DNA of 64,000 nt from an uncultured Gemmatimonadaceae bacterium (GCA_963781585.1 CAWAGQ010000011.1:160001-224000); one strand, 5' to 3'; shown: positions 6,133 to 62,600, numbered from the stretch's first letter. Made by a program: numbers and translations. The notes: generated by a model not told the origin, from the letters alone.

Positions 6133-8676
6133 TCAGAACTTCGCGCGGACGCCGAGGCTGAGCGTGCGACCCGGGACGACAGTCACGTTGTCGGGTTCGC
6201 CGCGCTGCTGGCCCAGCAGATTGTCCCCTGTGAGGACGAGAGAGAAGCCACGCAACAAGTCGCGGGAGAGGCTCGCTCTCAACCGCGTCACTCCGCTGTA
6301 GTCGATCCAGTAGGAGCGCAGAAGCGCTCCCGTGAACTGGCCGGCGCCGCCCTGGGCCGTGGCGAGGTTCTGCGCCAGCGAAAGCCGATCATAGTTGATC
6401 CAGTTGGCGGCCCTGGTCACGCTCCAGGATGTCAGCCAATGCGTGCCGCGCCAACTGGCGGACAGACTGGTTGTGCGCGCGGGCACTTCGAGCATCCGGT
6501 CGCCCGGCCGAAGGTCTCCAGTGTAGCCGGCGGCGATGCGCTGGACCCGGCTGTCCACCAGCGACAGCGCCCCTGAAAGGGAAAGCCGGCCCAGATCGGC
6601 CGTGCTCTGAAACTCCCAACCGCGGTTGGCGACCTGCCCCATGTTCTGCAACTGATACCACACGTGCTGACCCTGCGTGGGCGTTCCCGACTGCGGGTCC
6701 GCGGTGACGGCAACGGACTGAATGAGCCCGGAGGCGTGCTGGTCGAAGCGCGTCACCTTGAGGGAGAGTGTCCTTCCGATCAGGATGTCGGTCCCGACCT
6801 CGATACCGGATTGCGTTTCCGGCTCCAGTTCGGGATCCCCGTTGTCGTCGCCGCTTCCCCTCCAGAGCATCCGGTGAAGTGGTGTCTGCGGCGGGCGAAT
6901 GCCCTTGCCGTAGGCGGCCCGCAGCTTCACCGTCACCGGCCCGCGATCCTTCACGTACGCAATCCCGAGCACGGGGAGTGTCGCCCACTGTGCCTCGTCG
7001 GTGTAGCCGCTGTTCCGCTCGAGCCGCAACCCGCTGGTCAGGAACCAGGTGTTGTGAATCGCGAGGCTGGTCTGCGCCACGAGTCCGGTCGTGTTACGCC
7101 ACGACACGGCGCGAGCCGGCGCGGCGGAGAACATCGGACCCAGGTCGGCAACGGTCGCTTCACGGAGGGTCGACTGTTCGGCAGTCAGCGTCACCCTGGC
7201 CGATGTCCTCTCGGGTGCGCCAAACCGTGCCACGCTGCTCAGACGCACGGTGCCCCGGTCGGCGCCCCCCCGCGCCGCCCGCAGCGCCGAGTCGGTGGCC
7301 GAGGGGATCGGTCCGTTGTCGAAGGCGACGTTCGTGAGACGATAGCCGTCGATTCCGAGCACCACGATGTGCGTCCAGCGGCTGCCGGCGAGCAGGGTCC
7401 CGGTGGTGCCTAACGTGTATTCCCGCACCGCCTGCGGCCCGGCGGGGTTGGGCGTGCCTGACGACTCCATCGAGTCCCCGGGCGGTCGCTCCAGATCATC
7501 GTACGTCCGGCGGGTGGACTGGGAATGCGACGCAAACCATGCCGCCAGCACCGGACTCGGCGCCGTACCGGCGCGCTCGTCGAAAAACCGGGCCGACCCC
7601 GTCAGACTGCCGTGCGCGCCGATCAGTCGAGTCGTGCCGTTCAGGCTGAGGTACCGGCTGTTTCCGTCGGCCACGAAGTTCCCCATGCTGCCGACCGTCA
7701 TGTCCAGATCGGCCGACCGCAGGCTGTTCCCTGCCCGGAGCGACAGCGCGTGATCCTGCACCAGCACACCAAGCGGCGAGAAGGCGCTGCGCGACACCCC
7801 CGCGCTGGTACGCAGCGTGGCACGCGGCTCGTCCGGCGACACGCCGTCGTGACGGGTCACGACGTTGATGACGCCGCTGACCGCGTCCGCCCCGTACAGC
7901 GCGGCGCCCTGCGGGCCACGAATCACCTCCACACGCTCCAGCGCTTCGGGATTGAACTGGGTCAGGAGAAGCGGATTGGCCACCTCGATGCCGTCGATGT
8001 ACACCTTTGGATAGTTCACGCCAAACGAGCTGGCGCCGCGGATACTCGCGTATCGTGACACCAGGCTCGCCGGGGACTGCTCCCAGACCCAGACGCCGGG
8101 AACGACGCCGTCGAGGGCATGCGAAAAATTGTCGGCGTCGCGCTGCTGCATCTCGCGCGAAGACACCACGTCCAGCAACATGGTGCGCGCGCGCTCGGTC
8201 GTGCCGGTCGTGCTTCCGGTGACCACTACGCGGTCGAGCGCCTCAGCCGATCGTGGCGGTGCCGCGGTCGCCCCGCTGTCGGGACGCGCGCGTCGCGGCG
8301 CGAGCACGACCTGGTCCGGACCAACGGCAACCGGCGTCACCGCCGCCCCGTCCAGGAAGCGCTGGAGTACGTCGCCCACCTGCGCCTTGACGAAATCGCC
8401 GCACACGCGTCGATCGAGCTCCAGCAACTCCGAGGAGTACGAGAAGCGGATGTGCGACGTGGCGCTCAGATGGTCGAGCGCGCTGCGCAGCGAGGTCGCG
8501 CCCACGTGCAGGGAAACGAGCCGGTCGAGCGGCGGAAGCCACTGGCGCGATTCCGCAGCCGAATGCTGCCCGCAGGGTTGGAGGGCGCGCGCCGTTCCCG
8601 GCGCCGCGGCCGCACCGACCGCGACGACGCAGGCAATGAACAGGCGAGGTCGGCCGGGATGGCCGACCCGCCTCAC
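6133..8676 (-). CDS. TonB-dependent receptor/transducer with N-terminal signalling (STN-like) domain
   Basis: GTG at 8676 overlaps the FecR stop. Signal peptide, SLRSALDHL..RFSYS STN-like segment, TonB box LDRVVVTG, plug ERVEVIRGPQGAALYGADAVSGVIN, C-terminal Phe. Confidence 0.88.
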   Translation of the reverse strand: MRRVGHPGRPRLFIACVVAVGAAAAPGTARALQPCGQHSAAESRQWLPPLDRLVSLHVGATSLRSALDHLSATSHIRFSYSSELLELDRRVCGDFVKAQVGDVLQRFLDGAAVTPVAVGPDQVVLAPRRARPDSGATAAPPRSAEALDRVVVTGSTTGTTERARTMLLDVVSSREMQQRDADNFSHALDGVVPGVWVWEQSPASLVSRYASIRGASSFGVNYPKVYIDGIEVANPLLLTQFNPEALERVEVIRGPQGAALYGADAVSGVINVVTRHDGVSPDEPRATLRTSAGVSRSAFSPLGVLVQDHALSLRAGNSLRSADLDMTVGSMGNFVADGNSRYLSLNGTTRLIGAHGSLTGSARFFDERAGTAPSPVLAAWFASHSQSTRRTYDDLERPPGDSMESSGTPNPAGPQAVREYTLGTTGTLLAGSRWTHIVVLGIDGYRLTNVAFDNGPIPSATDSALRAARGGADRGTVRLSSVARFGAPERTSARVTLTAEQSTLREATVADLGPMFSAAPARAVSWRNTTGLVAQTSLAIHNTWFLTSGLRLERNSGYTDEAQWATLPVLGIAYVKDRGPVTVKLRAAYGKGIRPPQTPLHRMLWRGSGDDNGDPELEPETQSGIEVGTDILIGRTLSLKVTRFDQHASGLIQSVAVTADPQSGTPTQGQHVWYQLQNMGQVANRGWEFQSTADLGRLSLSGALSLVDSRVQRIAAGYTGDLRPGDRMLEVPARTTSLSASWRGTHWLTSWSVTRAANWINYDRLSLAQNLATAQGGAGQFTGALLRSYWIDYSGVTRLRASLSRDLLRGFSLVLTGDNLLGQQRGEPDNVTVVPGRTLSLGVRAKF

Positions 8677-9924: not shown

Positions 9925-10037
9925 TCGGCCTCTGGCCTTTGACTTCTGGCCTTTGACCTCTGGCCTTTGACCTCTGGCCTTTGACCTCTGGCCTTTTGGC
10001 CTCTGGCCTCTGGCCTCTGGCCTACAACCTTTGGCCT
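9925..10037. repeat. Degenerate heptamer tandem repeat (TGGCCTC/TGGCCTT/TGACCTC; 14-bp period TCTGGCCTTTGACC)
   Basis: Directly visible between divergent fecR and the sigma gene. Confidence 0.9.
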
Positions 10038-12760: not shown

Positions 12761-13803
12761 ATGACTGCCATTCAGACCTGGAGCCGGCCGCTCGCTGTGC
12801 TCCACGAACATCCCGACTGGTTCCGCCCGCTGTTCGCCGAGCTCGATCACCGGGGCCACGAGTATCGCCGGCTCGACGCGGCCTCGCACACCTACGATCC
12901 CGGTGAACGCGACGTGCCGTATTCGATCGTCTTCAATCGCGCCAGTCCGTCGGCGTATCTGCGCGGCCACGGCGCCTCCACCTTCTTCACGCTCCACTGG
13001 CTGCGTCACCTGGAGCGCCACGGCGTTCCGGTGGTCAACGGCAGCGCCGTCTATGCGCTGGAGCTCTCCAAGGCGTCGCAGCTCGATCTCCTCGATCAGC
13101 TCGGGTTGCCGTATCCGCGCGCGGTGATCATCAACGATCCCGCGCACGCCCTCGCGGCCGCCCGCCTGCTGCGCTACCCGATCCTGGTCAAGGCGAATAT
13201 CGGCGGCAGCGGCGCCGGCATCGTGCGCTACGACTCGCCGGCCGCCCTCGCCGACGCGGTGGCGGCGGGGGCGGTGGCCCTGAGCGTGGACGGCACGGCG
13301 CTGGTGCAGGAATGCGCGCCGCTGCGCGGGGGGCACATCACCCGCGTCGAAACGTTAGGCGGCCGCTATCTGTACGCGATCGATGTCTTTCCCGCGGCCG
13401 GCTCGTTCGACCTCTGCCCGGCCGATGCCTGCCAGACCACCAGCGGGGTGGAACTGGTGCGCGGCGCCTGCGCGGCCGACGCGCCCCGCGGCGGCCTCCG
13501 CGTCGAGGCCGCCCACCCGCCGGCCGCCGTCATCGCGCAGGTCGAGCGAATCGCCCGCGCCACGCAGCTCGATGTCGGCGGCATCGAGTATCTGATCGAT
13601 GATCGCGACGGCCAGGTCCGCTTCTATGATATCAACGCCCTCTCCAATTTCGTCGCCGATGCGCCGAACGTGATCGGCTTCGACCCGTTCGTGAACCTCG
13701 TCGACTACCTGGAATGGCGGGCACTCGGCGACCAATGCGACGCGTCATCCGCGGCGTTCGCGCCTCCCCGCCTCTCGCTCTCCACCGCTCACCACGTCAC
13801 GCC

Positions 13804-13807
<4 letters not shown>
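12761..13807 (+). CDS. ATP-grasp ligase (RimK/glutathione synthetase-like)
   Basis: AGGAG RBS; VVNG..ELSKA, YPILVKANIGGSGAGI, LVQE, DVGGIEY, YDINALSNF. Confidence 0.85.
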
Positions 13808-16070
<2,263 letters not shown>

Positions 16071-18861: not shown

Positions 18862-19020
18862 CGAAATCTCCTGCGTGGTATTCGCGCGAAACTGCCGGAA
18901 TCAATCGAACGAGTGCGTCTGCCTAACTGTACCAGGTCGCGAACGGCTCACTCCCCCACCCACGCTCGCGAAGATGCGTGCGCTCTCCCGGTCCCACCAG
19001 TCCTGCATCACCCATCGACA

Positions 19021-20622: not shown

Positions 20623-20967
20623 GCCGTCCCCGGGGTCGGACTGCTCTCGTCCCATGTGCATTGACACGACATACCAGGAGCCGTACAGTAATATATCACG
20701 ACCCGGGCTTCGGGCCGAGAGTTTTTTCGCAGCGACTGTCGTCTCCAGCGGCGCACGCGCCGGTGTCGAGCGATCGTCGGTGCGGGCGTTGGTCGGAGTC
20801 ACCAGAATGCCCGGCCCACCGGCGGCCCGTTCGCCGGCAGGCCTGAGTGGTTTGCGTCAGCCGCCTAACGAACGATGCGCACGTCGCGACCTGCGGCAGG
20901 CGCCCGCCGTTGCGACGGCAGACGAGTCGGCAGGTCGTTCGCATTCATCAGCAGGAGGACTCCGATT

Positions 20968-23900: not shown

Positions 23901-24120
23901 CTCCGCGGTGCTCACGTTGCCCGACCGTGTGGTGGGCTACATCAGGGCCCAGACCGGATCGAACATCGTCTTCGCGGCGCGCAACCTGCGCGTCTGGACG
24001 AATTTCACCGGCTACGACCCCGAGGCGAACTACGGCCTCAATCAGTCGGACGCGCAGAACGAGTTCCAGACTGCCGGCGCGCCGACGTACTACACGATCC
24101 GCGTCAACCTGAAGTACTGA
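20968..24120 (+). CDS. SusC/RagA-family TonB-linked outer-membrane transporter
   Basis: [72 protein letters not shown]; C-terminal Y. Confidence 0.94.
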   Translation: [1050 protein letters not shown]

Positions 24121-25677: not shown

Positions 25678-28593
25678 ATGTCCCGCGTTCTCCGGTGCCT
25701 CACGCTCACCGCCTCCCTGATCGCGGTGCCGGTCGCCGCCCAGCAGGGTGGCCCGCACGTCACTCCCGGGGTTTCGGCCCTGCCGCGCGTCCCCGAGAAG
25801 GACTATTCCCGGTGGGAAACGTTAGGCAGCGGCGCGCTCTCGCCCGACGGCCGCTGGGTGGCGTATGACTTCCGCCGGGTGGGCGGAGGGGGCGAGCTCC
25901 ACTACCGGGCCGTAGCCTCGGGCAGCCAGCAGGCCGGAACCGAACGGATCGTGCACAACGGATCCGGCCCCGCCTTCACCAGCAACAACCGCTGGCTGCT
26001 GTATACCGTGAACGGCGATACGACCGGCGGGGGCCGGGGAGGCGGCGGGGGTCGGGGTGGGCGGGGCGGTGGCGCCGCGGGCGGCCGTGCCGGGAACCGC
26101 AACAAGGTCGGTATCGTGGATCTCGGCTCGGGAACCACGACGATGCTCGAGGAAGTGCAGTCGTTCGACCTGAGCAATGACGGCGTACACGTGGCGCTCC
26201 GCCGCTATCCGCCGCAGGGAGGCGGCCGCGGTGCCGACCTCGTCGTCCGCGACCTCGAACACGCCACCGACGTCACGTTCGGAAACGTGGCCGATTTCGC
26301 GTGGAGCGATGACGGCGCGCTGCTCGCCATGATCATCGACGTACAGGGCAAGACCGGGAACGGCGTCCAGGTGCTCGACGCGTCGACCGGCACGCTGCGC
26401 GCGCTGGACGCCGGTGACATGCTGTACGCCGGCCTGCAGTGGCGGGACAAGAGCGACGATTTGGTCGCGTTGCGGAGCCGCGCCGACAGCGCCTTCGCCG
26501 ACACCAGCTATGTCGTCATCGCCTGGCGCGGAGTACACTCGGCAAACCCCGAGAAGCGCCTGTACGACTTCGCGAGCGACAATGCGTTTCCGGAGGGGAT
26601 GCGGGTGGCGGCGTATCGGGATCCCCAGTGGTCCGATGACGGCGCCACCCTGTTCTTCGGCATCGCACCGCGCGAGGTGAAGGTGCCGCCGCCGCCGCGC
26701 CGCGGCGGTGGGCCGATGCCCGCCCGCGTCGAGGTCTGGCACTGGAAGGATCTGCGCGAATACCACCAGCAGGATCGCCAGTCCGCCCAGGACCGGACGC
26801 GGACGCACCTGGTGGCGTGGCACCTGGCGTCGAACAAACTCGTCCGCCTGGCCGATGACTCGCTGGAGAACGTGCAGTTGTCCGCGCACCGCAATGCCGC
26901 GATGGCGTCCGACGAGGATCCGTACTTCATGGACGTGATTTCGGGTCGCGCCTACCGCGACGTCTATACGGTGAACGTCGCCACCGGCGAACGACACAAG
27001 GTCGTGACCAGGACGGCGTTCAACGCCGACCTCAGTCCCAGCGGCCGCTACCTGCTCTACGTGCAAGGCGGCCAGTGGTGGTCGCTCGACCTCACCTCGC
27101 AGGCCCGCACCAACCTCACCGGCAATATCCGGAGTGTCTTCGTCGACATGGAGGACGATCACCCGGTGCACGAACGCCGGCCGTACGGCCTCGCCGGATG
27201 GACGCCTGACGAGAAGGCGGCGCTGCTCTACGATCGCTTCGATGTCTGGCAGGTGAACGTCGACGGGACGCACCCGGTGCGGCTCACGCGCGGGAGCGAA
27301 GACTCCACCGTCTACCGGGTGGTGTCGCTGGACGAGGACCGGCCGGTCTTCGGCGGCCGAGGCGGAGGCGGCGGGGCGACGACCGTCGATCCCGCGAAGC
27401 CGATCATCCTGTCCGCCACCGGCGAGTGGAGCAAGAATAGCGGCTACGCCCGCCTCACGCCCGGTCAGCCGGTCGAACGGCTGATCTGGCTCGACAAGAG
27501 CGTCACCCGCCTCACGAAGGCGAAAGACGCGGACGAGTACCTGTTCCTCGAGCAGACGTACGAAGACTCGCCCGACTTCTTCACGAGCGCGGCGACGATG
27601 CACGACCCCCAGCAGATCTCCCACACCAACGCCTTCCAGAGCGACTATGCGTGGGGGAAGCAGGTGCTGATGAACTACCGCAATGGACACGGCGACCGGC
27701 TGCAGATGATGCTGACGTATCCGGCCGACTACCAACCCGGGAAGAAGTACCCGATGGTGGTCTACTACTATGAGAAGCTGTCGCAGGGCTTCCATCAGTA
27801 CGTGGTTCCCACCGATCGGGCCACCTACAACACTACGGTGTTCAGCCAGGAAGGGTATTTCGTATTGCGCCCCGACATCCGCTTCCGTCCGCGCGACGCC
27901 GGATTCTCGGGCCTCGACTGCGTGACCTCGGCGGTCAGGGCGGCCATTGCCGCCGTCCCGGACATCGACGCGAAACACGTGGGCAACATGGGCCACTCGT
28001 GGGGCGGGTATCAGTCGGCGTTCTACGCCGTGCACAACAAGGGCGTCTTTGCCGCCACCATCGCCGGCGCCCCGCTCACCGACTTCATCAGCATGTACGG
28101 CTATACCTCGTTCAACACTGGCGCGCCCGAGACCGGCCACTTCGAGACCGGACAGGAACGGATGCAGGTCTCGCTATGGCAGGATCCGATGGCCTACGTC
28201 CGCAACTCCACGGTGTTCGCCATCGACTCGCTCAAGACGCCGCTCCTGCTGGAGGAGGGTGACGCCGACGGCAACGTGAACTACTGGCAGTCGATGGAGC
28301 TGTACAACTTCGGACGGCGGCTCGGGAAGCAGGTGGTCTTCCTCATCTATAATGATGAGAACCACAGCCCTGCCCGTCCCGAGAGCCAGATGGACTACCA
28401 CCGCCGCCAGATCGAGTGGTTCGCCCACTTCCTCAAGGGCGAACCTGCCTCGGACTGGATCACGAATGGCGAGAGCTACCTCGCCCGGCAGAAGTTGTTG
28501 CGCGCCGCCGGAGCCAACGGCTCGGCGACCGCTGATGCGGCCGCTCCGGCGGGAGGGGGACGTGGGCGCGGCGGCGGGCCGCCGAATCCGTAG
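25678..28593 (+). CDS. Secreted S9 prolyl-oligopeptidase-family peptidase
   Basis: AGGAG RBS; signal peptide; beta-propeller repeats (SPDG, WSDDG); GHSWGG nucleophile, DGNV Asp, ENHS His. Confidence 0.92.
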   Translation: MSRVLRCLTLTASLIAVPVAAQQGGPHVTPGVSALPRVPEKDYSRWETLGSGALSPDGRWVAYDFRRVGGGGELHYRAVASGSQQAGTERIVHNGSGPAFTSNNRWLLYTVNGDTTGGGRGGGGGRGGRGGGAAGGRAGNRNKVGIVDLGSGTTTMLEEVQSFDLSNDGVHVALRRYPPQGGGRGADLVVRDLEHATDVTFGNVADFAWSDDGALLAMIIDVQGKTGNGVQVLDASTGTLRALDAGDMLYAGLQWRDKSDDLVALRSRADSAFADTSYVVIAWRGVHSANPEKRLYDFASDNAFPEGMRVAAYRDPQWSDDGATLFFGIAPREVKVPPPPRRGGGPMPARVEVWHWKDLREYHQQDRQSAQDRTRTHLVAWHLASNKLVRLADDSLENVQLSAHRNAAMASDEDPYFMDVISGRAYRDVYTVNVATGERHKVVTRTAFNADLSPSGRYLLYVQGGQWWSLDLTSQARTNLTGNIRSVFVDMEDDHPVHERRPYGLAGWTPDEKAALLYDRFDVWQVNVDGTHPVRLTRGSEDSTVYRVVSLDEDRPVFGGRGGGGGATTVDPAKPIILSATGEWSKNSGYARLTPGQPVERLIWLDKSVTRLTKAKDADEYLFLEQTYEDSPDFFTSAATMHDPQQISHTNAFQSDYAWGKQVLMNYRNGHGDRLQMMLTYPADYQPGKKYPMVVYYYEKLSQGFHQYVVPTDRATYNTTVFSQEGYFVLRPDIRFRPRDAGFSGLDCVTSAVRAAIAAVPDIDAKHVGNMGHSWGGYQSAFYAVHNKGVFAATIAGAPLTDFISMYGYTSFNTGAPETGHFETGQERMQVSLWQDPMAYVRNSTVFAIDSLKTPLLLEEGDADGNVNYWQSMELYNFGRRLGKQVVFLIYNDENHSPARPESQMDYHRRQIEWFAHFLKGEPASDWITNGESYLARQKLLRAAGANGSATADAAAPAGGGRGRGGGPPNP

Positions 28594-29800: not shown

Positions 29801-30592
29801 TCACCGCGTGCCGGTCCCGCTCAGCACGCGATCGATGATCCGCTGAAATGCTTCCACCGGCTGCACTCCCTCGAGCGGCACACCGTTCACCACGAAGCCC
29901 GGCGTTCCCGAGAATCCGAACCGCCTGGCCTCCTCCCGGTCCGCGTCGATCACCGCGCGCACCGCCGCGCTCCCCGCATCCCGCTTGGCGCGCGATAGAT
30001 CGGCACCCACCTTCTGCGCCGCCGCGTCGACGAACGCCGCACCCTGCGTCGCCAGCTGATCCTGGTGCTCGTACATCTCGTCGTAGAATCGCAGCGCTAT
30101 GTCCGGATTCTGGCGCACAATCGCCTCGAACATCAGCGCCGCCGGCATGGCATGCGGATGAAACTCCATCGGCATCTGCTTCACCACCAGCCGCACGTCG
30201 TCGCCGTACTGACGCATGACGTCCACGAGCACAGGCCGTGCCTCGCGACAGTAGGGACACTCGAAGTCCGTGTACTCGACGATCGTGACCCGGGCACGTT
30301 CACTGCCAAAGCCAATCCGGTGATCGAGAACCGGATGCAGGGGATGCTGGAACGCCGCCTCGACGCGCCGGGTCTCTTCGTCCGCCATCCGCGACTGACG
30401 CGTGGACTGTGTCGCGCGCGCCACACTGTCCAGCAGCACAACGAACTGCTCGGGGTGCGCCCGAATGGCATCGAGAACCACCTCGGGGTGTCGCACCAGC
30501 GTGTCGCGGATCTGGTCCGGTGACGGTGAGGCACAGGCCGCGGCGGTCAGGAAGGCTGCGATGGCGCCGCCCCGCAGGCGGGCGCCTAACAT
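29801..30592 (-). CDS. DsbA/thioredoxin-fold lipoprotein
   Basis: AAAC lipobox; EYTDFECPYC, HPHA, GTPGFVVNG. Confidence 0.88.
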   Translation of the reverse strand: MLGARLRGGAIAAFLTAAACASPSPDQIRDTLVRHPEVVLDAIRAHPEQFVVLLDSVARATQSTRQSRMADEETRRVEAAFQHPLHPVLDHRIGFGSERARVTIVEYTDFECPYCREARPVLVDVMRQYGDDVRLVVKQMPMEFHPHAMPAALMFEAIVRQNPDIALRFYDEMYEHQDQLATQGAAFVDAAAQKVGADLSRAKRDAGSAAVRAVIDADREEARRFGFSGTPGFVVNGVPLEGVQPVEAFQRIIDRVLSGTGTR

Positions 30593-45432: not shown

Positions 45433-47505
45433 TTACCGCGCGATCGCCACGGCCGTCACCAGTCTGACGAGCGCATCCAGATCGCGGAGGTCCAGCACTT
45501 CGGCCGGACCATGTGAATAGCGCCCCGGCCACGACAGCCCGATGTTCGGCGGGCCCCACTGCTGAATCGACGAGCCGTCGGTGCCGCCGAACGTGGTGCC
45601 GATCTGCAGCGGAATCGTATTGGCCCGGGCGATGCGGACGATGCGGTCGCGCTCCGGACGCGGCACCAGGCTGGCGTTGTCGAGGGCCCGGAGCACCGGT
45701 CCGGCGCCTAACGGAGCGTACGCGAAATGCGGGGACTCGAGGGGCGTATCGCTCGTGACGAAGGTGTCGATGCTGTACACCCGCCGGAGCGAGGTTCCGT
45801 GTCGCTCACCGAAATAGCGGGCGCCATTGAGCCCGCCCTCCTCCTGTACCGACCATACGAAGATGACCTTGTGCGAAAGCGAGTCGGGCTTGAGACGCCG
45901 AATGGCGAACAGGAGCGCGGTATCACCCGAGCGGTCGTCGCTCGCGCGGCCAGTCATTCGCGTCCCGGCCAGCGGCTGCGCCCGCTTGTACGCCGTCACG
46001 CTCAGCCCGGGGTGCACGCCGCGCGCGACCAGCTGCCCCGAGTCGAGCCCGAACCATGCGGTGAGCGCGCCGGGCGACTTCACTCTCGCCGCATCACGTG
46101 GAACGAACACGCCGCGCAGGGATTCCGGGGCGGCACCGCCTGGGTCCGCGTCGAAATGGAGGTACGCCGGCACGCCTTCCCACGACGTGATCACGGCGCC
46201 CCCGCGCGTACGCAGGGTAGCGCGTCCGTCGGGCAGGATGCCCGTTACCTCGAACCCGACCTCGTCGGTGTGCGCGAGGAACGCCACCGAATCGCGGTCG
46301 GGACCCATCGCGACGATGATGTTTCCCATCGAGTCCACCACCGCGATGCGCCGCGCCCAGTCGGGCAGCGCCGCCAGCACCGCCGCCCGCACGCGCCATT
46401 CATGCCCGGACACGCCGGGCAGATCGGCAAGCGCCATCCACTGGCGCGCGAGATCGGCGTATCGGTCGGCGTGAGGCGCCGCGCGCGAGCTGTTGAGTGG
46501 CGGAGCGACCCACGCGTCGCCCGTGAGCCGGACGTTCGCCGCATCCGCCACAGCTCCCTTCAGTCTGCGCGCATCGTCGGCGGAGATGGACTCCACAAGC
46601 GACCCTCCCCATCTCACGCGCGGCCCGATCACGCGCACGGAGTCGATGTCGATCACGCGTGACGCTGCGCGAAACTCCTGACCCAGCCGACTCCGTGTCG
46701 AGACGGCGTCGTAGGCCGTGTTGCGTCCCTCGCTGACGATGGTGAGCGCATCGTAACTGCCCAGGTGCGCGAGAAGGGCGCCCAGCCCCACCCATCCCAG
46801 CGGCGCCTGTGTCGAGAGCACGAAGATGGTCTCTCCCGATTGCACCTGGCCGCTCGATGCGGTCGCGACGGCAGCGCATCCGGCGCGCTGTCCCGCGCCC
46901 GGGCCGGCGGTAAATCCCTCGTAGGTCCACGGCGGCCGGTCCACCGTGACCGGATCCAGGAGCGCGATGCCGAGCGCGCGCACGTCCGCAGCAGTGGCGG
47001 CGCCGACGTCGATCCAGAGGTCGTCCACGCCAACCACGGTTGTGTCGCCGCGATGCTGTGCGGCAAAGTGCCCGTTCGCCACGGCCACGACGCCGGGCAC
47101 CGGGCCGCGCGCCGAGAAGACCTTGATCTGCTGCGCCTCGTGGAACTGATCCCACAGCGGATGCGGCGGCTGGCCACCCACCCGGCGCAGACGCAGATAT
47201 GCCTGGTCGGTGATCTGGCTGACCACGTAGCCGGAATAATCCAGCGCGCACGCCACCACGCGGCGCGGCGAGCCGCTGCCGGAATGCCTGACGAGATTTC
47301 CCCAGACGTCGGCCGTCCATCCGGGGAGTGTCGCCGCGAGGCGCGTGGTGGCCACCACCGGATCGCCGGGCGGTGCGTCGAGCGCGGTCCAGGCCGCGAC
47401 GGCGTCGACCACCTGCCGGTTCGGATCAGGGGCCTGCGCTCCGAGGCAGGCGGGGACGGCCGTCAGGATCGCAGCGGCCCGAAGAGACTTGGCGAGGTCC
47501 GGCAT
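45433..47505 (-). CDS. Secreted M42 aminopeptidase-family protein with two tandem M42 domains
   Basis: C-terminal half: GVSGHE, DSMGN, AHTDEVG, DDR, QEEGG, GGTD, YSH. The N-terminal half is a degenerate copy. Confidence 0.85.
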   Translation of the reverse strand: MPDLAKSLRAAAILTAVPACLGAQAPDPNRQVVDAVAAWTALDAPPGDPVVATTRLAATLPGWTADVWGNLVRHSGSGSPRRVVACALDYSGYVVSQITDQAYLRLRRVGGQPPHPLWDQFHEAQQIKVFSARGPVPGVVAVANGHFAAQHRGDTTVVGVDDLWIDVGAATAADVRALGIALLDPVTVDRPPWTYEGFTAGPGAGQRAGCAAVATASSGQVQSGETIFVLSTQAPLGWVGLGALLAHLGSYDALTIVSEGRNTAYDAVSTRSRLGQEFRAASRVIDIDSVRVIGPRVRWGGSLVESISADDARRLKGAVADAANVRLTGDAWVAPPLNSSRAAPHADRYADLARQWMALADLPGVSGHEWRVRAAVLAALPDWARRIAVVDSMGNIIVAMGPDRDSVAFLAHTDEVGFEVTGILPDGRATLRTRGGAVITSWEGVPAYLHFDADPGGAAPESLRGVFVPRDAARVKSPGALTAWFGLDSGQLVARGVHPGLSVTAYKRAQPLAGTRMTGRASDDRSGDTALLFAIRRLKPDSLSHKVIFVWSVQEEGGLNGARYFGERHGTSLRRVYSIDTFVTSDTPLESPHFAYAPLGAGPVLRALDNASLVPRPERDRIVRIARANTIPLQIGTTFGGTDGSSIQQWGPPNIGLSWPGRYSHGPAEVLDLRDLDALVRLVTAVAIAR

Positions 47506-53383: not shown

Positions 53384-54295
53384 ATGATGCGTTGTGCAAT
53401 GCGGCGTAGTTGGGGGGCAGCGCGCGTCCTGCCATTCGTGCTCGGGATTCTCGTCACGCCGGGCGCCCGCGGTCTGGCGCAAGGATCGGGGAACGCGCCG
53501 TGGGATGCCGTTGGTCGGATCCTCAAGTCTCCGCCCGCGCCCGCGGCAGGATACGTCCGGTTCAACTTCCCCCGCCGCGACATCACGCTGAGGATCGGCG
53601 ACGTCACGGTGGCGACCGCGATGGCGTCAGGCACCTGGGCGGGATTCAGCGGCGATCCTGCCAACGCCACGATGATGGGCGACCTGGTGCTGCTCGCCGG
53701 GGAGCTCAAGCCGGTGCTCGCGGAGCTGGCCAATCAGCACATCGCAGTCATGGCTATCCACAATCATCTGGCGGGCGAGTCTCCGCCGCTCCTGTACGTC
53801 CACTATCACGCGGATGGACGCGCCGCCGACCTGGCCCAGCGACTGGATCGTGTGCTCGTCCATACCGCAACGCCACGCCCGGTCACGGTTGCCGCCCCGG
53901 CGCCGGCCACGATCGACACCGCCCTGATCTTCGCCACGTTAGGCCTTCACGGGCGCGCCCAGGGAAACGTGGCCCAGGCGTCGGCGATGCTGGTGAGCGG
54001 TCAGGTGACAATGGATGGCCAGGTGGTCAACCCCGCCATGGGCTACGGCACGCCGATCAACATCCAGATGGTGAGCGCCACCCGTGCGGTGGCCACCGGT
54101 GACTTCTCGGTGCTCGCCCCGAAGGCGGCGGATGTGGTGCGCGCATTGTCCATGAACGGCGTGACCGCCACCGCGATGCACACCCATCTGGTGGGAGAGC
54201 AGCCGCAGATCCGCTATATCCACTTCTGGGCCGATGGGCCGCTGGCCGACGTGCTGCGCGGGCTCAGGGCCGCGCTGGACGCGGCGCGCCCCTGA
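53384..54295 (+). CDS. DUF1259-like tandem-domain exported protein
   Basis: MGDLVL..E, AIHNHL..E.P...Y.H repeated as GDF..L, AMHTHL..E.P...Y.HFW. Confidence 0.75.
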   Translation: MMRCAMRRSWGAARVLPFVLGILVTPGARGLAQGSGNAPWDAVGRILKSPPAPAAGYVRFNFPRRDITLRIGDVTVATAMASGTWAGFSGDPANATMMGDLVLLAGELKPVLAELANQHIAVMAIHNHLAGESPPLLYVHYHADGRAADLAQRLDRVLVHTATPRPVTVAAPAPATIDTALIFATLGLHGRAQGNVAQASAMLVSGQVTMDGQVVNPAMGYGTPINIQMVSATRAVATGDFSVLAPKAADVVRALSMNGVTATAMHTHLVGEQPQIRYIHFWADGPLADVLRGLRAALDAARP

Positions 54296-54387
54296 TCGCC
54301 GGCCAACCACCCGCCGCGGCCGTGTCGCACGGCCTGCCGGATGCCGGCCCGGCCGGGCGAATCGGCCGGGCTCTGGTCGCCTGATGC

Positions 54388-55008
54388 CTAACGACTCGCG
54401 GCTTCGATCACCTTGCGGAACAGGTCGAACGGAATGGCGCCGGGAATGACCTGACCATTCACGAAGAACGTGGGCGTGCCGCGGATGTTGAGCGTGGTGG
54501 CCAGCAGCGTGTTGTGCTCGATGTGCCGGGCGGCGGTGATTCCCCGGGCGCAGGTCGAGAATCGCGACGCGTCGAGCTTGAGATCCCGGACGTAGCGCGC
54601 TATCACGACCTGCACATCCGATGCCCCCATCCATTCCGTCCGGTGCGAATACAGCAGATCGTGCATCTTCCAGAACGCGTCCTGTTCGGCGGCGCACTCG
54701 GCGGCCACGGAAACCTCCCGTGAATGCCTGAAGTTTCCCGTCACGAACGGAACGAACTTCCACTTCACGATGCCGGTCCGGATGTAGGCGGAATCGATCT
54801 GCGGGTACGTCTCGGCGACGAACTTCGCACAGTAGCCGCAGCCGAAGTCACCGAACTCGATGACATAGACGCGCGCGTGGTCGCCGCCGCGGTCGTGCCC
54901 GACGCCGGCGAGGTCAATGCCGGCCCCCCCCTGCGCACGAGCGAATCCCGGCACCGCGAGTGCGATGAGGGTACTCGCCAGGAGAGCCGCAAACCGCGCG
55001 GCCCGCAT
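54388..55008 (-). CDS. DsbA-family thioredoxin-fold protein
   Basis: Signal peptide; EFGDFGCGYC, A.ECAAEQ..FW.MHD, GTPTFFVNG. Confidence 0.88.
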   Translation of the reverse strand: MRAARFAALLASTLIALAVPGFARAQGGAGIDLAGVGHDRGGDHARVYVIEFGDFGCGYCAKFVAETYPQIDSAYIRTGIVKWKFVPFVTGNFRHSREVSVAAECAAEQDAFWKMHDLLYSHRTEWMGASDVQVVIARYVRDLKLDASRFSTCARGITAARHIEHNTLLATTLNIRGTPTFFVNGQVIPGAIPFDLFRKVIEAASR

Positions 55009-55062: not shown

Positions 55063-55140
55063 GGGCCAAAGGCCAAGGCCAAAGGCCATTGGGAGGGCCA
55101 AAGGTCCATGGTCATAGGCCAAAGGTCATGGGCCTATGGC
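55063..55140. repeat. Degenerate heptamer repeat tract (AGGCCAA/AGGTCAT)
   Basis: Reverse-complement relative of the 9925 tract; between divergent dsbA and sigma genes. Confidence 0.7.
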
Positions 55141-55191
55141 CGTACACCCCCAACTCTTTTCGCCGAGCCCGTGTCGAAGGGTGTGGAGAAG

Positions 55192-55774: not shown

Positions 55775-56395
55775 ATGACGGACGAACGACTTCAGGAACT
55801 TCTCGACGACGCGGCGCGCACCTGGCGCGTCCTGCCGGAGCCCGACGTCGCAGGAATATGGTCGCGCGTGGAGCATGCGGTGTTCGACGGAGCAGGCAAG
55901 CGTCGCCGCTGGATGAAGGCGCCCGGATGGCGCGTGCTGGGGCTGGCGATGGCGGCTTCCCTCGTGATCGGGGTGGCGCTCGGGCGGATCGTATCGCGTC
56001 CGGCCTCCACCACGCCGCTGGCGACGACGCCGGACACGGCGCGCAGGGTTGCGTCGGCGTACGACCAGGCGGCGACGGATCTCCTCGGCCGCTCGGCGGT
56101 GCTGCTGACCGCGCTCCCGGCGGAGGTGCGCCGCGGGGGGGCGAACGAGCGCTTCACGTCGCAGGCGAGCGAGCTGCTCACCACCACCCGCCTCCTCCTC
56201 GACTCGCCGGCGGCGTCCGATCGCCGGTTCAAGGAACTGCTCGAGGACCTGGAGCTGGTGCTGGCGCAGGTGGCCCGGATGAAGCCGGCGCGGGGACACG
56301 AAGAGATGGATCTGATCACCGATGCACTTGAAGAGCGCGACGTGGTACCGCGGATCCGTTCCGAGGTGGCGCGTCTGTCGTTAGGCGACGGATAA
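55775..56395 (+). CDS. Putative membrane anti-sigma factor
   Basis: Directly after the sigma gene; W.R motif, single TM (LAMAASLVIGVALG), helical C-terminus LLEDLELVLAQ. Confidence 0.65.
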   Translation: MTDERLQELLDDAARTWRVLPEPDVAGIWSRVEHAVFDGAGKRRRWMKAPGWRVLGLAMAASLVIGVALGRIVSRPASTTPLATTPDTARRVASAYDQAATDLLGRSAVLLTALPAEVRRGGANERFTSQASELLTTTRLLLDSPAASDRRFKELLEDLELVLAQVARMKPARGHEEMDLITDALEERDVVPRIRSEVARLSLGDG

Positions 56396-58205: not shown

Positions 58206-59491
58206 CGACGACGATGCGCGCCGCAGGCTGGGCGGGGGCGATGGCGATCCTGGTGGTCGCCGCGCTGCCGGCCTGCGCGCAGACGGTGGAGCGCCGGGTG
58301 AACGGCGCCCCGACGGGCAACGTGACGTTCCACTTCGCGGCGCGTGCCAACGTGTGCGGCGATGGCCAGAACTATCTCAGGTCGGACTACGGTAGCTGGT
58401 ACGGGAGCAACTACGATATGTCCCGAACGCTGTCGTGCGACGCGGGTCCGGTGCGCGTGCTGCTGGTGCGTGACGGGCGCGATCTCCTGCGGATTCAGGC
58501 CTTCGCAGGTCCGCTGGCGACGGAGCCGAACGCGACGGATCTCGGTGCGGTCCCGGCCGCTGAGGCGGCGTCGTATCTGCTGGGTCTCGCGAAGACCGTG
58601 GATGGGCGTCCCGGGCGCGACGCGCTCCTGCCGGCGATGCTGGCCGACAGCACGCTGGTGACGCGCGACCTGCTGGCGCTGGCCAAGGACGGCCAGCGCA
58701 GTCGCGAAGTTCGACGGAGCGCGCTCTCATACCTGGTGCGGCGGCGTGGCGATCGCGGGGAACTCTCGGCCGACGAAGTGAGCCGAGCGTTGACCACGAT
58801 TGCGCGCGACGAGTCCGAGACGCGGACGGTGCGTGATCAGGCGATGGGCTCGCTGGCGCGCGTCGAGAGCGGGGAAGGGCTGACGGCGATGGTCGCGATG
58901 ACCGAGGATGCGTCTGATTCGTGGATGGCGCGGCGCGCGGTGGAGCTGCTGGCCAGCTCCGGCGATCCTCGCGCGCGTCCGTATCTGCGGACCGCCGCCG
59001 AGCGGACGGAGCTGACCGAGGAGGCGCGGGTGGCGGCGATCAACGGGATCGCCGGTGACTACGCCACCTCGAAGGACGGGGAGTTCCTGCGGGGGCTTTA
59101 CGGCCGGCTCAACTCCGACCGGCTGCGCGAGGCTGCGCTGAGCGGCGTCGCCAACATCGGAGGCGCCGACAGCCGCCAGTGGATCATGGGCATCGCGCGC
59201 GATTCGAGTCAGGACATCCGCCAGCGGAGGCGGGCGGTGGAGCTGTCGGACCGGATCGGCGTCACGGCGTCGGACCTGAGCCGGATGTACGACGCGGTGG
59301 GCAACGACGAGGTGCGGTCGTCGATCATCAGCGAGCTGGCGCAGCTGGGAACGCGGGCGGCGTCGGACAAGCTGATCGCGATCGCGAAGAGCGACACGTC
59401 GGTGAGCAACCGCCGCCGCGCGATTCAGGCGTTAGGCAGGTTCGACGATCCGAAGGTCCGGGAGGCGTTGCGGGAGATAGTGGGGAGGTAG
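58202..59491 (+). CDS. Exported HEAT-repeat protein
   Basis: ATGA overlap; signal peptide; repeats VRRSAL, VRDQAM, LREAAL, RRRAI..LG..DP. Confidence 0.82.
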   Translation: MTTTMRAAGWAGAMAILVVAALPACAQTVERRVNGAPTGNVTFHFAARANVCGDGQNYLRSDYGSWYGSNYDMSRTLSCDAGPVRVLLVRDGRDLLRIQAFAGPLATEPNATDLGAVPAAEAASYLLGLAKTVDGRPGRDALLPAMLADSTLVTRDLLALAKDGQRSREVRRSALSYLVRRRGDRGELSADEVSRALTTIARDESETRTVRDQAMGSLARVESGEGLTAMVAMTEDASDSWMARRAVELLASSGDPRARPYLRTAAERTELTEEARVAAINGIAGDYATSKDGEFLRGLYGRLNSDRLREAALSGVANIGGADSRQWIMGIARDSSQDIRQRRRAVELSDRIGVTASDLSRMYDAVGNDEVRSSIISELAQLGTRAASDKLIAIAKSDTSVSNRRRAIQALGRFDDPKVREALREIVGR

Positions 59492-59492
59492 T

Positions 59493-59580
59493 CCATAGGC
59501 TATAGGTCATGGGCCATCGGTCATGGGCCATCGGTCATGGGTCCCATGAGCTATGACCTATGGCCTCTGGCCTCTGGCCT
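59493..59580. repeat. Degenerate heptamer repeat tract (GGTCATG/GGCCATC then TGACCTA/TGGCCTC)
   Basis: Visible between the HEAT gene and the kinase; the two halves face opposite ways. Confidence 0.75.
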
Positions 59581-59636: not shown

Positions 59637-62600
59637 GTGCGGAGCGCATTGGCCGACATCCGAGAGCAACTCCAGTCATCGCTGGGCGAGATGTACACCA
59701 TCGAGCGCGAGCTCGGTGGCGGGGGGATGTCGCGCACCTACGTCGCTATGGAGCGGGCGCTCTCGCGCCGGGTGGTGGTGAAGATCCTGTCGCCCGAACT
59801 GGCGGCCGGGGTGTCGGTGGAGCGGTTCAAGCGCGAGATCCTGCTGGCCGCCCAGATGCAGCACCCGCACGTGGTCCCGGTTCTCTCGTCGGGCGACGCG
59901 GGCGGCCTCCCCTGGTTCACCATGCCCTACGTGGAGGGCGAGTCGTTGCGCGTGCGGCTGGCGCGGGGGCCGCTGGCGATCGGGGAAGCAGTCAGCGTCC
60001 TGCGCGACGTCGCGCGGGCGCTGGCGTTCGCGCACTCGCACGGCGTGGTGCATCGCGACATCAAGCCCGACAACGTGCTCCTCTCGCAGGGAAGCGCGAC
60101 GGTCACCGACTTCGGTATCGCCAAGGCCATCAGCGCGGCCCGCGCCGCGGCCCCGGGCGCGACCCTCACCATGGCCGGCACGTCGATCGGGACGCCGGCG
60201 TACATGGCGCCGGAGCAGGCGGCGGGCGATCCGAACATCGACCACCGCTCCGACATCTATGCGTTCGGCGCGATGGCGTACGAGGTGCTGGCCGGGCGGC
60301 CTCCGTTCGAGGGCTCGTCACCCGCCAAACTGCTCGGCGCCCATCTGGCCGAGAAGCCGAGGGACGTGCGGGAGTTGCGCGGGGACATACCCGAGCCACT
60401 GGCCGCGCTCGTCATGCAGTGCCTGGAGAAGGATCCGGCGGCGCGGCCTCAGGAGGCGAGGGACCTCGCCAGAGTGCTCGACAGCGTGACGTCCAGCGGC
60501 GCGGCAACCGCCGCTCCAGGGGTGCTCGCGGGCCGGATCAGGGTGGGTCGCGCGCTCGCAGTCTGGGCCGGCGCGACCGCGCTGGTGGCGCTCACCGCCT
60601 GGGCAGCCACGGTGGTGATCGGGCTCCCCGACTGGGTGCTTCCCGGATCGCTGGGCGTGATGCTCGCCGGATTGCCGGCTATCGGATTCACGGCGTGGGT
60701 GCAGCGCGCCACCCGCCGCGCCTACACGGCCACGCCGACGTTCACGCCCGGCGGTACGCTGTCGGCGGCGCAGGGGACGCTGGCCACGCTCGCCATCAAG
60801 GCCAGTCCCCACGTGTCGTGGCGGCGGACGTGGATGGGTGGGATGGTGGCGGTCGGGGCATTCGTGGCGCTGGTGGTCGGGTTCATGGTCCTCCGTGCGT
60901 TAGGCATCGGGCCGGCGGGATCGCTGATCGGTTCCGGGAAGCTCGGCGCCAACGACCAGATCATCATCACCGACTTCAGGAGCCCCGCCAGCGACTCCAC
61001 GCTCGGCGTGACCGTGACCGAGGCGTTGCGAGCGGACCTCGCCCAGTCGGCGACGCTGCGGGTCATGCCGCGGCTGGCGATCGTCGACATCCTGCGGCTC
61101 ATGCAGCGGCCCGCCGACTCGCGCGTCGACTTCGACCTCGCGCGGTCCATTGCCAGCCGTGAAGGGGTGAAGGCGGTGCTCGATGGCGACATCGTGTCGC
61201 TGGGCGGCCGGTACGTGCTCTCCACCCGGCTCATCTCGGCCCAGGACGGTGGACAGCTGGCCGCGTTCAAGGAGGAGGCCGAGACCCAGAACGATCTGAT
61301 CCCGGCGATCGGGCGGCTGGCGAAGCAACTGCGCTCGAAGGTGGGGGAGTCGCTCAAGCTGGTACGCGAGGCGTCGGCGTTGGATCGCGTCACGACCGGT
61401 TCGCTCGAGGCGCTCCGCAAGTATGTCGCCGCCAACGTGCGGCAGAGCGAAACGAGCGACTACTCGCAGGTGAATCCGCTGCTGGAAGAGGCCGTCGCCA
61501 CCGATTCGACATTCGCGATGGCGTGGCGCCGGCTGGCGATGAACTACAACAACAACGGGCAGCCGGAGAAGGCGCAGGCCGCGGTGGTCCAGGCGTACAA
61601 GTTCCGGGACCGGTTGAGCGAGGTGGAACGACAGCTCACCGTTGGCACCTACTATGAACTCGGCCCGGAGATCGACGACGAGAAGGCGCTCGCCGCCTAC
61701 CAGGCCGCGCTGAGTCGCGACTCGCTCAACTACATCGCGCTCAACGACGCCGCGAACATTCTTCGCGCGCAGCGTGAGAACGAGAAGGCACTCAGCTACT
61801 ACCTCCGAGCCGTCGCGCAGTCGTCAACAAGGACGCCGATCACCTGGAACAATGCCATCTCCGCGGCGACTCTCCTGGGTCGCTGGGATCTGGCCGATAG
61901 CCTCGGGTCGGAGTTCGCCAAGCGGATGCCGGGGAATCCCCAGGCGCTCGCGTTGCCAGGACTCCGTGCTGCCGTCCGGGGAGACTTTGACGAGGCCGAG
62001 CGCGTCCTCGAGTTGGTTCGGCCGCGGATCTCAGGGAGCCGGACTTCGACGGCAACCCTTCTCGGGCAACTCGCGAATGTCATCCAGACTCGAGGACGTC
62101 TGCGCGAGGCCCTCCAGCTCCGGAGCCAGCAGCATGAGCCGCAGATTGAGCAGGGAAGTCACGCGGCGCTGCTGGCCGCGGGGCTCGATTCGGTAGCGGT
62201 GGCCGCGGTCGCGCTGGACGATCCTGTGCGGGCGCGGGCTCTGCTGGCGCGGGCGCTGAAGCGGTCGCCGGTGGACTCGATTCCGCCGCTCCAGCGCGAC
62301 TACGATACCTACCTCGTGGTGGCCATGCTGAGCGGGGACACCGCACGCGCGCGGGAGTGGCATGCGGAGGCGCGGAAGGCGTGGGAGGAACTTGGCAAGG
62401 CTATCGTGCGCCCGGCATGGGAGTCGGTCGATGACGCGGCGCTCGCGGTGTCGGAAGGACGGCTGAGCGACGCGCTGGCGAAGATCGACGAAGCCGACCG
62501 ACGACTGCTCCCGCGCACCGACGTCATCGCATCGATGCGCTTCACCATTCTGGACCGCATGCAGCGCGTGGACTCGGCGATCGCCACGGGCGAGGCGTAC

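Follow-up and report, generated by a model that had tools for sequence, protein, structure and literature searches.

A short DNA word, cGTTAGGCr, densely written into some Gemmatimonadaceae genomes: a candidate uptake-sequence-like signal

The window analysed here, a 64-kb stretch of DNA from an uncultured Gemmatimonadaceae bacterium, carries a V-type ATPase operon, TonB receptors with CarboxypepD_reg domains, TPR kinases and MacB/FtsX permeases; this gene content and the named homologues point to the Gemmatimonadaceae. Genes were called by a self-trained codon score and checked with Pfam, and the calls are rough. The GC content is 67.5%, lower than the ~69% given in an earlier note on this DNA. 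Dispersed over the window is a short non-palindromic word whose logo form has nine letters (cGTTAGGCr), with the 7-mer GTTAGGC (complement GCCTAAC) as its core and CGTTAGGC as the 8-mer. The earlier note had listed 18 copies of the core, nine on each strand; all of them were found in place (Table 1), and 16 are extended by a leading C to CGTTAGGC.

In 100 dinucleotide-preserving shuffles of the window, CGTTAGGC was expected 0.93 times against 16 seen and the 7-mer 2.47 times against 18, and none of the shuffles matched either observed count; the two to three copies formerly estimated from base composition hold for the 7-mer, the figure for the 8-mer being lower. When the 8-mers of the window were ranked by order-3 Markov z-score, CGTTAGGC came first. 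Moreover, a codon-aware null was run in which synonymous codons were shuffled while proteins and codon usage, including the 19 TTA codons, were kept (300 shuffles, window-wide and per gene). Under this null 1.7-1.8 copies of CGTTAGGC were expected (maximum 5) against the 16 observed, and 3.2-3.3 copies of GTTAGGC (maximum 7) against 18.

Fourteen of the 18 copies lie in frame as NNG-TTA-GGC; the window has 19 in-frame TTA codons, 14 of which sit within G-TTA-GGC, in agreement with the earlier remark that most copies read as Leu-Gly although TTA is otherwise rare. Seventeen copies run in the same direction as the local gene, and the even strand split of the window arises because the copies follow gene orientation. 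The remaining copies are also as had been described: two intergenic (18921 and 20863), one over the TAG stop codon of gene 54388-55008 and one antisense in the IS110 gene (15766).

The distribution of the word among relatives was studied with a GTDB genome scan, using an alignment of the two TPR kinases of the window and 20 homologues. This gave 79 Gemmatimonadales loci (1.11 Mb; labelled L and a number below), all centred on kinase genes and 77 of them titled as metagenome-assembled genomes (MAGs) of Gemmatimonadota; MAG contigs may be mis-binned, and motif-free denotes a count of zero. Density is bimodal: 13 loci are rich (4-43 copies, 0.3-1.9/kb), 8 are low and 58, covering 765 kb, are empty. 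The rich loci together with the window hold 164 copies of CGTTAGGC in 289 kb. The empty loci are of a GC like that of the rich ones (0.667 vs 0.674), and even the hexamer TTAGGC is almost missing from the empty ones. In the motif-free relatives TTA makes up 67 of 19753 Leu codons (0.3% outside the motif). As an empirical dicodon null, Leu-Gly is written TTA-GGC once in 1741 cases in these relatives and 14 times in 154 in the window, so that the enrichment does not vanish when dicodon usage is allowed for.

The low loci (L015, L035, L044, L047, L055, L058, L066 and L071) have one or two copies each (0.04-0.24/kb) and may represent lineages in which the word is starting to spread, or decaying. 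Two loci assigned to one MAG differ sharply, L057 having 19 copies in 21 kb (0.9/kb) and L062 none in 5.6 kb, which suggests a mis-binned contig or foreign DNA, and the word could be used as a check on MAG binning. A kinase tree, built from the 39 loci with a kinase open reading frame of at least 850 aa plus the two window paralogues, was tried as a test for a single motif-bearing clade and set aside: paralogues were mixed, the nine rich rows required 7 changes, and 77 of 500 shuffles were as low. Only L004, L007 and L010 cluster among the rich rows of this tree.

A cultured carrier was found by a PLSDB protein search, in that two megaplasmids of Gemmatirosa kalamazoonensis KBS708 (ATCC BAA-2150) carry the word. 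The sample consisted of eight 50-kb stretches of these megaplasmids, seven of them round the 1.1-Mb plasmid, and each had 37-52 copies of GTTAGGC (0.74-1.04/kb), 325 in total, of which 291 are CGTTAGGC, in 400 kb. In these samples G-TTA-GGC accounts for 97 of the 110 TTA codons in frame. The earlier proposal of a lineage-specific DNA signal is supported by the division into 13 rich, 8 low and 58 empty loci, by the spread of the word through all samples of the cultured relative and by its action on DNA (see below). At L087 25343-25430, a 12-base tandem repeat codes for (Ala-Leu-Gly-Ala)n with every Leu written TTA, and holds the word seven times within 90 bases.

The word is read on DNA, not in RNA or in translation, because it is found in each of the four stop-free frames, on either strand and in non-coding DNA, with the same flanks. 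Among 200 copies in the 13 rich loci, 84 were Leu-Gly, 31 Pro-Asn (antisense), 18 Leu-Thr (antisense), 13 Val-Arg and 54 intergenic. With a stricter local frame call the same 200 gave 66, 21, 14 and 8 for the four frames and 75 uncalled, the further 16 frame-assigned copies (9, 4, 2 and 1) having a stop codon within 240 bases; a gene rule requiring GC1>GC2 gave a similar spread over frames and non-coding DNA. An artefact of shadow reading frames behind the antisense Pro-Asn class was considered and discarded, as the class stays after the local and GC1>GC2 recalls (21 of 109 confident copies; 55 of 186 in Gemmatirosa). The share of amino-acid-compatible sites that are occupied in the rich loci is 0.156 for Leu-Gly and 0.384, 0.193 and 0.118 for the other three frames, and the window offers 129 compatible Leu-Gly sites against 13, 23 and 42 for the other three in the same order. 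The bias of the window to one frame and the sense strand thus arises because Leu-Gly is the commonest compatible dipeptide. The earlier note had spoken of the word forcing TTA codons; most TTA codons do lie in the word, and they are forced only because no other site lets it be written as cheaply as Leu-Gly. The TTA codon is a by-product and not the signal, because the word also occurs antisense and in non-coding DNA.

A logo of 218 copies has C before GTTAGGC in 75% and a purine (R) after it in 77%, with the same preferences in non-coding copies and no flank signal beyond the nine positions. An extended motif with GGACCGG downstream was unsupported by this logo. Repeats of the repetitive extragenic palindrome or miniature inverted-repeat transposable element type (REP/MITE) were rejected as well, since the 218 copies hold no information outside the nine positions and most lie inside genes.

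Strand splits in the MAG loci were 9:9 (window), 22:21 (L004), 14:15 (L007), 18:16 (L010), 8:13 (L032), 11:8 (L057), 4:5 (L063) and 5:3 (L022); that is, near-equal in seven of eight with L032 as the exception, even where genes are strand-biased, as in L007 with 14:15 copies despite 16 kb and 6 kb of genes per strand. The eight Gemmatirosa samples summed to 162:163, seven being near-equal and one 12:27; round the 1.1-Mb plasmid six of seven were near-equal, and no relation to the sign of GC skew was found in the eight samples. Polarity of the Chi, FtsK-orienting polar sequence (KOPS) or architecture-imparting sequence (AIMS) type is therefore not supported. In the window itself, cumulative GC skew has its minimum at ~48 kb with a change of sign; the Pfam scan near this point gave no dnaA, dnaN or par gene, and the change is probably one of gene orientation.

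A sister word with C in place of the second T, CGTCAGGC, occurs 23 times in the window between 353 and 62940 (Table 1), where the codon null gives 9.8-10.2 (maximum 17) and the motif-free relatives would predict 3.8. Its flanks match those of the T form: a C precedes in 88% and an R follows in 78%, against 47% and 52%, respectively, in motif-free DNA. Copies occupy all stop-free frames and non-coding DNA, and fill the frames left empty by the T form in the window, namely Leu-Thr (CTG-ACG), Pro-Asp, Val-Arg and non-coding. Because CGTCAGGC is enriched with the flanks of the T form, the signal in the lineage of the window is best written cGTYAGGCr, with 39 octamers in 64 kb. Enrichment of the GTC form is 5-6 fold in the window and in L022, L050 and L063, ~2-fold in the densest genomes, and nil in L057, L056 and L024. 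At positions 1-7400 of the window, where the V-type ATPase operon lies, GTTAGGC is lacking and CGTCAGGC is present in six copies.

At positions 1, 7 and 8, other one-off forms of the octamer stand out against a background of none, the counts in rich and motif-free DNA being 12/0, 26/0 and 16/0 for the position 1 variants, 6/0 for cgttagAc and 11/0 for cgttaggT; for cgtCaggc they are 56/44, a 3.3-fold difference in density. Positions 2-6 (GTTAG) are otherwise strict, with no position 2 variant in rich DNA, and no depletion of a one-off precursor was found in the rich genomes.

Copies are also kept better than their surroundings. L007 and L010 share ~11.7 kb at ~80% identity, and in this one genome pair 12 of the 14 L007 copies are exactly kept against 3070 of 10021 other 7-mers (30.6%; p = 3e-5); the non-conserved copies differ by single substitutions such as GTTCGGC. 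The kinase site R-A-L-G-I-G-P carries the word in both window paralogues, which are 48% identical, and in L004, L007, L010 and L022, the Leu codon in motif-free genomes being CTC, CTG, CTT or TTG. Moreover, protein sequence is shifted: Pro-Asn occurs 1.86 times per 1000 residues in Gemmatirosa and 2.03 in the rich MAGs against 1.23 in motif-free relatives, and the reversed control Asn-Pro 1.35 and 1.36, respectively, against 1.54. The corresponding odds ratios for Pro-Asn versus Asn-Pro are 1.72 (p = 5e-4) and 1.87 (p = 0.017). The Leu-Gly dipeptide is only slightly raised in motif-bearing proteomes.

Spacing between copies had a coefficient of variation of 0.37-0.90 in the MAG loci, more even than random (p < 0.05) in four of eight, and of 0.65-1.32 in Gemmatirosa, again with p < 0.05 in four of eight samples; even spacing as a general property was dropped, being significant in several samples only. 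Concerning methylation, the single-molecule real-time (SMRT) methylome of G. kalamazoonensis comprises three N6-methyladenine (m6A) motifs, RGATCY, ATGCAC and CCAGN7TCA (PMC3974934). The word is absent from them, no m6A or N4-methylcytosine (m4C) was detected at it by this method, which does not assess 5-methylcytosine (m5C), and the full text of that genome announcement does not mention it. This weakens the methylation-linked option of the earlier note, m5C lying outside the reach of the method.

Of particular interest is L086 (Gemmatirosa plasmid 1, 820-870 kb), which contains hairpin elements with a basal stem GCCTAACG…CGTTAGGC; these are attC sites, and an Rfam search that returned only a chance small nucleolar RNA match was disregarded. 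Gene L086:36827-37786(-) codes for an integron integrase, scoring 423 bits with TIGR02249 (cut-off 265). A covariance model was trained on 27 Gemmatirosa copies and located 66 attC sites in L086, between 573 and 36168, none in the window and only weak matches in the 42 other loci searched (best L081, 30.7 bits); beside solitary copies of the word, no attC was found in the window, 21 other motif-bearing and 22 further loci, apart from two weak matches. The region at L086 573-37786 (plasmid 1, ~820.5-857.8 kb) is a large sedentary megaplasmid integron with at least 66 cassettes and attC sites of 96-98 bases. Integrase and cassettes are transcribed in one direction, the array possibly extends beyond the start of the sample, and the integron may be the collapsed repeat region of the genome announcement.

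The consensus attC core is GTTRRRY and the inverse core RYYYAAC (PMC3053210 and PMC12901181). GTTAGGC fits the R' form and GCCTAAC the R'' form, which only 32 of the 16384 possible 7-mers do on either strand. The array uses 11 variants of each core, among which GTTAGGC leads for R' with 19 of the 66 sites and GCCTAAC for R'' with 20 of 66; C precedes R' in all 66 sites, in agreement with the genome-wide logo. Outside the array, only GTTAGGC is strongly enriched among the 16 GTTRRRY words, GTTAGAC (14) and GTTAGGT (11) being at most weakly so, in MAGs. The cassette bodies hold one copy in 29 kb against 12 in the 14.4 kb adjoining the array; the mobile cassette pool has not acquired the word of its host. 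Among the other large motif-free gaps, three of nine contain toxin-antitoxin, integrase or orphan genes, which gives partial support only to reading such gaps as islands, and that reading was not retained.

Other words that ranked as enriched proved to be of a different nature. In the window, AGGCCAGAGG and CAAAGGCCA score because of local tandem arrays with 7- or 14-base units (Table 1) and are not dispersed motifs. The same applies to the enriched words of L019, L025, L028 and L039, which are local repeat arrays, tandem heptamers in all but L028, where CTGACCCC occurs as dispersed inverted pairs. Motif-free relatives have intergenic, lineage-specific tandem heptamer arrays (ACGAGAT, ACGATAG, ATAGCGG) set as inverted pairs.

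Table 1. Copies of the word and of its C form in the window, and tandem arrays in the window and in relatives.
Feature	Locus	Coordinates	Strand	Reading	Gene or surroundings
CGTTAGGC	window	7408..7415	-	in frame ACG-TTA-GGC (Thr-Leu-Gly)	TonB-dependent receptor gene 6133-8505(-)
CGTTAGGC	window	13353..13360	+	in frame ACG-TTA-GGC	gene 12797-13807(+), no Pfam family
CGTTAGGC	window	15766..15773	-	antisense, there read CTA-ACG (Leu-Thr)	IS110 transposase gene 15135-16070(+)
aGTTAGGC	window	18921..18927	-	intergenic	minus-strand neighbours peptidase M14 16117-18726 and 19021-19824
CGTTAGGC	window	20863..20870	-	intergenic	between GntR-type regulator 19855-20661(-) and TonB receptor 21010-24120(+)
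CGTTAGGC	window	25820..25827	+	in frame ACG-TTA-GGC	peptidase S9 gene 25678-28593(+)
tGTTAGGC	window	30584..30590	-	in frame ATG-TTA-GGC	start of DsbA-like gene 29801-30592(-)
CGTTAGGC	window	32360..32367	+	in frame TCG-TTA-GGC	outer-membrane efflux gene 31636-32967(+)
CGTTAGGC	window	34772..34779	+	in frame ACG-TTA-GGC	MFS transporter gene 34297-35868(+)
CGTTAGGC	window	36986..36993	-	in frame GCG-TTA-GGC	MacB/FtsX permease gene 36728-39184(-)
CGTTAGGC	window	38069..38076	-	in frame GCG-TTA-GGC	second copy in MacB/FtsX permease gene 36728-39184(-)
CGTTAGGC	window	40734..40741	+	in frame GCG-TTA-GGC at R-A-L-G-I-G-P	kinase 39479-42652(+)
CGTTAGGC	window	45706..45713	-	in frame CCG-TTA-GGC	peptidase M42 gene 45433-47505(-)
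CGTTAGGC	window	53937..53944	+	in frame ACG-TTA-GGC	DUF1529 gene 53438-54295(+)
CGTTAGGC	window	54386..54393	-	over TAG stop codon	DsbA-like gene 54388-55008(-)
CGTTAGGC	window	56379..56386	+	in frame TCG-TTA-GGC	close to end of gene 55775-56395(+)
CGTTAGGC	window	59430..59437	+	in frame GCG-TTA-GGC	HEAT-repeat gene 58202-59491(+)
CGTTAGGC	window	60898..60905	+	in frame GCG-TTA-GGC at R-A-L-G-I-G-P	paralogous kinase 59649-62831(+)
CGTCAGGC, 8 bases each	window	starts 353, 1490, 2464, 7456, 21899, 25544, 27204, 34240, 40842, 47286, 47834, 48330, 50330	-		
CGTCAGGC, 8 bases each	window	starts 1268, 2117, 2823, 11656, 20443, 29597, 33687, 48143, 53625, 62933	+		
Tandem arrays, 7- or 14-base units (GGCCTCT/CCTCTGGCCTTTGA, GGCCAAA, CCTCTGG)	window	9927-10023, 55064-55141, 59494-59580			just upstream of ECF sigma-factor genes 10106-10657 and 55171-55770 and kinase gene 59649-62831
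Heptamer arrays	L019	3648-3770, 7583-7700			
Heptamer arrays	L025	7629-7733, 17568-17660			
Heptamer array	L039	9776-9990			

The reading that we tentatively favour is that cGTTAGGCr is an uptake-sequence-like signal of self DNA maintained by molecular drive, which among the options listed in the earlier note is the one that fits best. A force at the DNA level would spread and keep the word in a subset of Gemmatimonadaceae genomes, overriding codon bias and shifting protein sequence. A component of the natural transformation machinery would preferentially take up fragments that carry the word, and through recombination of the imported DNA the word would then be passed on at an advantage (molecular drive, whether or not uptake of own-species DNA is also selected for). 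The word would fill tolerated positions, first the synonymous Leu-Gly sites (TTA-GGC), then Pro-Asn, Val-Arg and Leu-Thr on either strand, then non-coding DNA, and newly arrived DNA would stay poor in it. From this we infer competence, an uptake bias and a receptor in the motif-bearing lineages. The pattern has parallels in the DNA uptake sequences (DUS) of Neisseriaceae and the uptake signal sequences (USS) of Pasteurellaceae: excerpts of the relevant papers describe no orientation bias, a non-coding excess and over-represented mismatched forms (PMC1939737), a frame bias with about twofold enrichment of the encoded tripeptides (PMC2817400), and copies that outlast their flanks in conservation, are missing from recently acquired genes and form inverted pairs in terminators (PMC2397512). 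ComEC homologues are listed for five soil Gemmatimonadetes MAG populations, four as 'two domain' and one as 'fragment', in PMC7305173 (Supplementary Table 3).

Several points weigh against this interpretation. Neither competence nor uptake or transformation is known from Gemmatimonadota; the ComEC-bearing soil populations are not known to belong to motif-bearing lineages; the Pfam-checked genes of the 64-kb window include no competence gene; and no literature pairing a Gemmatimonad with 'uptake sequence' was found. With 8-9 informative positions the core is shorter than a DUS. The non-coding excess is modest and depends on rough gene calls (in Gemmatirosa the 33% of DNA outside called genes has 43% of the copies, and in the MAGs 54 of 200 copies were called intergenic), and spacing is even in many samples, not in all. 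The spelling coincides with the integron core GTTRRRY, a 0.2% coincidence for a random 7-mer that an uptake model does not predict; this coincidence may be the most valuable lead in the data. Finally, strong selection for a protein-binding site inside the cell, or a repair-based drive, would produce all of the properties observed here as well (enrichment, action at the DNA level, lack of polarity, lineage restriction, site conservation, proteome distortion and near-absence from cassette bodies).

The first of these, a binding site for an abundant sequence-specific intracellular protein kept by selection, whether for nucleoid organisation, for segregation or condensin loading or as a marker by which a defence or repair nuclease would recognise the cell's own DNA, is in our estimation unlikely. 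It would account for the exact conservation of 12 of 14 copies, for a strict GTTAG core with looser edges, for the spacing that is more even than random in several loci and for the presence of the word on both Gemmatirosa megaplasmids, and it needs no methylation. Selection on each site among thousands should however be very weak, yet 12-38% of codable sites are occupied and protein sequence is altered, both of which are easier to account for by drive. There is no known candidate protein, and we know of no nucleoid or segregation site with this density and such exact spelling inside genes.

A link to integrons is less probable still. Here the integron integrase of these lineages would prefer the word as its double-stranded core (R box), and the genome-wide copies would be secondary attG-like sites or by-products of the integrase. 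The fit of GTTAGGC and GCCTAAC to core and inverse core, shared by 32 of 16384 7-mers, speaks for it, as does the Gemmatirosa plasmid 1 integrase beside 66 attC sites in which these are the commonest cores, all preceded by C. Integrases can also act on genomic secondary sites (bioRxiv 10.1101/2022.04.29.490043, with PMC12901181 naming attG sites). However, the other 15 GTTRRRY words lack strong enrichment, whereas attC cores vary freely; the solitary copies have no adjacent attC; and the GTC form of the window breaks the GNT crossover triplet of integron cores (triplet as given in bioRxiv 10.1101/2022.04.29.490043, according to which off-target integrase sites are expected to be harmful). As far as we can infer, no known integrase step would write solitary cores into conserved codons.

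Slightly lower yet we rate a drive by DNA repair or modification, in which a modification enzyme together with very-short-patch-type or other biased repair would convert near-cognates into the word; a repair-based drive has been proposed for the highly iterated palindrome HIP1. Such a drive would affect both strands, all frames and non-coding DNA, would be lineage-specific and would spare new DNA such as cassettes, as is seen. The three Gemmatirosa m6A motifs are unrelated to the word, however, and no one-off precursor is depleted in rich genomes. Very-short-patch repair restores C, and the word has an AT core in genomes of 67-73% GC; the known motifs linked to repair also fall short of its enrichment by orders of magnitude. 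That the T form might stem from a methylated C form by deamination was rejected, as relatives supply the C form at 0.057/kb only and Leu-Gly sites would go from Ser to Leu.

A Chi-like hotspot or a KOPS/AIMS-like polar sequence, acted on by RecBCD/AddAB or FtsK, is very improbable. The word is a short, non-palindromic, over-represented octamer, and its density in the window (0.25/kb) is close to that of Chi in E. coli. The earlier note had used the 9:9 strand split against this option; that split tracks gene orientation and does not carry the argument, and the lack of polarity holds on other grounds, in seven of eight MAG loci (20 kb) and six of seven Gemmatirosa plasmid samples, without relation to the sign of GC skew. 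Moreover, the word is missing from sister genomes, so that it has been written against codon bias and not adopted from a common oligomer.

A signal in RNA or translation (a rare TTA of the bldA type, a codon-pair effect or an mRNA motif), first suggested by the 17 of 18 co-oriented window copies with 14 in one frame, is ruled out for practical purposes by the use of all frames and both strands in relatives, where in the richer ones about a third of coding copies are antisense and many copies are non-coding, by the frame bias following the count of codable sites, by flanks that are unchanged in non-coding copies and by a C form that has the same flanks and no TTA.

Returning to the uptake-sequence-like signal, no earlier report of the word was found: the text matches listed for CGTTAGGC are primers or unrelated, no literature joins GTTAGGC with a Gemmatimonad, and searches on Gemmatirosa with competence and on k-mers and uptake sequences in general gave nothing relevant among the matches listed. 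To our knowledge, uptake sequences have been described in only two proteobacterial families, and they are the clearest case of molecular drive shaping whole genomes and proteomes. It is possible, if rather doubtful, that the word serves in DNA uptake or in the recognition of own DNA, which would be a first outside the Proteobacteria, that some Gemmatimonadaceae, soil bacteria that are abundant yet seldom cultured, are naturally transformable with a preference for DNA tagged with cGTTAGGCr, and that this preference, the tag being the attC core too, also favours the import of integron cassettes. If so, it would be a third independent case of uptake sequences, in a different phylum, making the phenomenon general; it would predict natural competence in a major soil phylum whose gene flow is poorly understood, and link the specificity of uptake to the biology of integrons. 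Sister genomes with and without the motif form a clean contrast, ideal for a search for the reader protein by phylogenetic profiling, and the cultured strain KBS708 is fully sequenced. Should the uptake reading be wrong, the word would still be among the most extreme oligomer biases in bacteria, taking up 74-88% of TTA codons where present and lacking in 58 of 79 related loci. Its being spelled exactly like the integron core points towards a connection, so far unexplored, between the recombination sites of integrons and the composition of the host genome. In practice, the word marks the lineage strongly and can help in binning and in the detection of foreign DNA.

Among known systems, the word shares with the bldA-dependent TTA of Streptomyces a codon that is very rare in a high-GC genome, and is unlike it in that 74-88% of the TTA codons (14 of 19 in the window, 97 of 110 in Gemmatirosa) belong to one DNA word. 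Chi (GCTGGTGG), KOPS and AIMS are over-represented non-palindromic octamers as well; the present word has no strand polarity and is not built from common codons. HIP1 (GCGATCGC) of cyanobacteria is likewise a hyper-abundant octamer in and outside genes, conserved between orthologues, restricted to certain lineages and of unclear function. It is a palindrome linked to DNA methyltransferases, whereas our word is non-palindromic and not among the three SMRT-methylated Gemmatirosa motifs, and the HIP1-like option of the earlier note fails on palindromy. With the integron attC core the word shares its spelling, which is one of the allowed forms and the commonest core in the 66-site Gemmatirosa integron; its solitary copies differ in having no palindromic partner, L boxes or adjacent cassette, and in lying in frame at conserved housekeeping codons. 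Compared with DUS and USS, the word belongs to another phylum, Gemmatimonadota, from which competence is not known, has a shorter core (8-9 informative positions) that is AT-rich in genomes of 67-73% GC, uses an otherwise unused codon and is spelled as an integron core. Like DUS and USS, it is a short non-palindromic word at ~1/kb, equal on both strands and without replication polarity, with a frame bias set by codability, enriched encoded peptides, enriched mismatched forms and copies more conserved than their flanks; like them, it is found in some lineages only, has variant 'dialects', is rare in newly acquired DNA and occurs occasionally as inverted pairs at the bases of hairpins.

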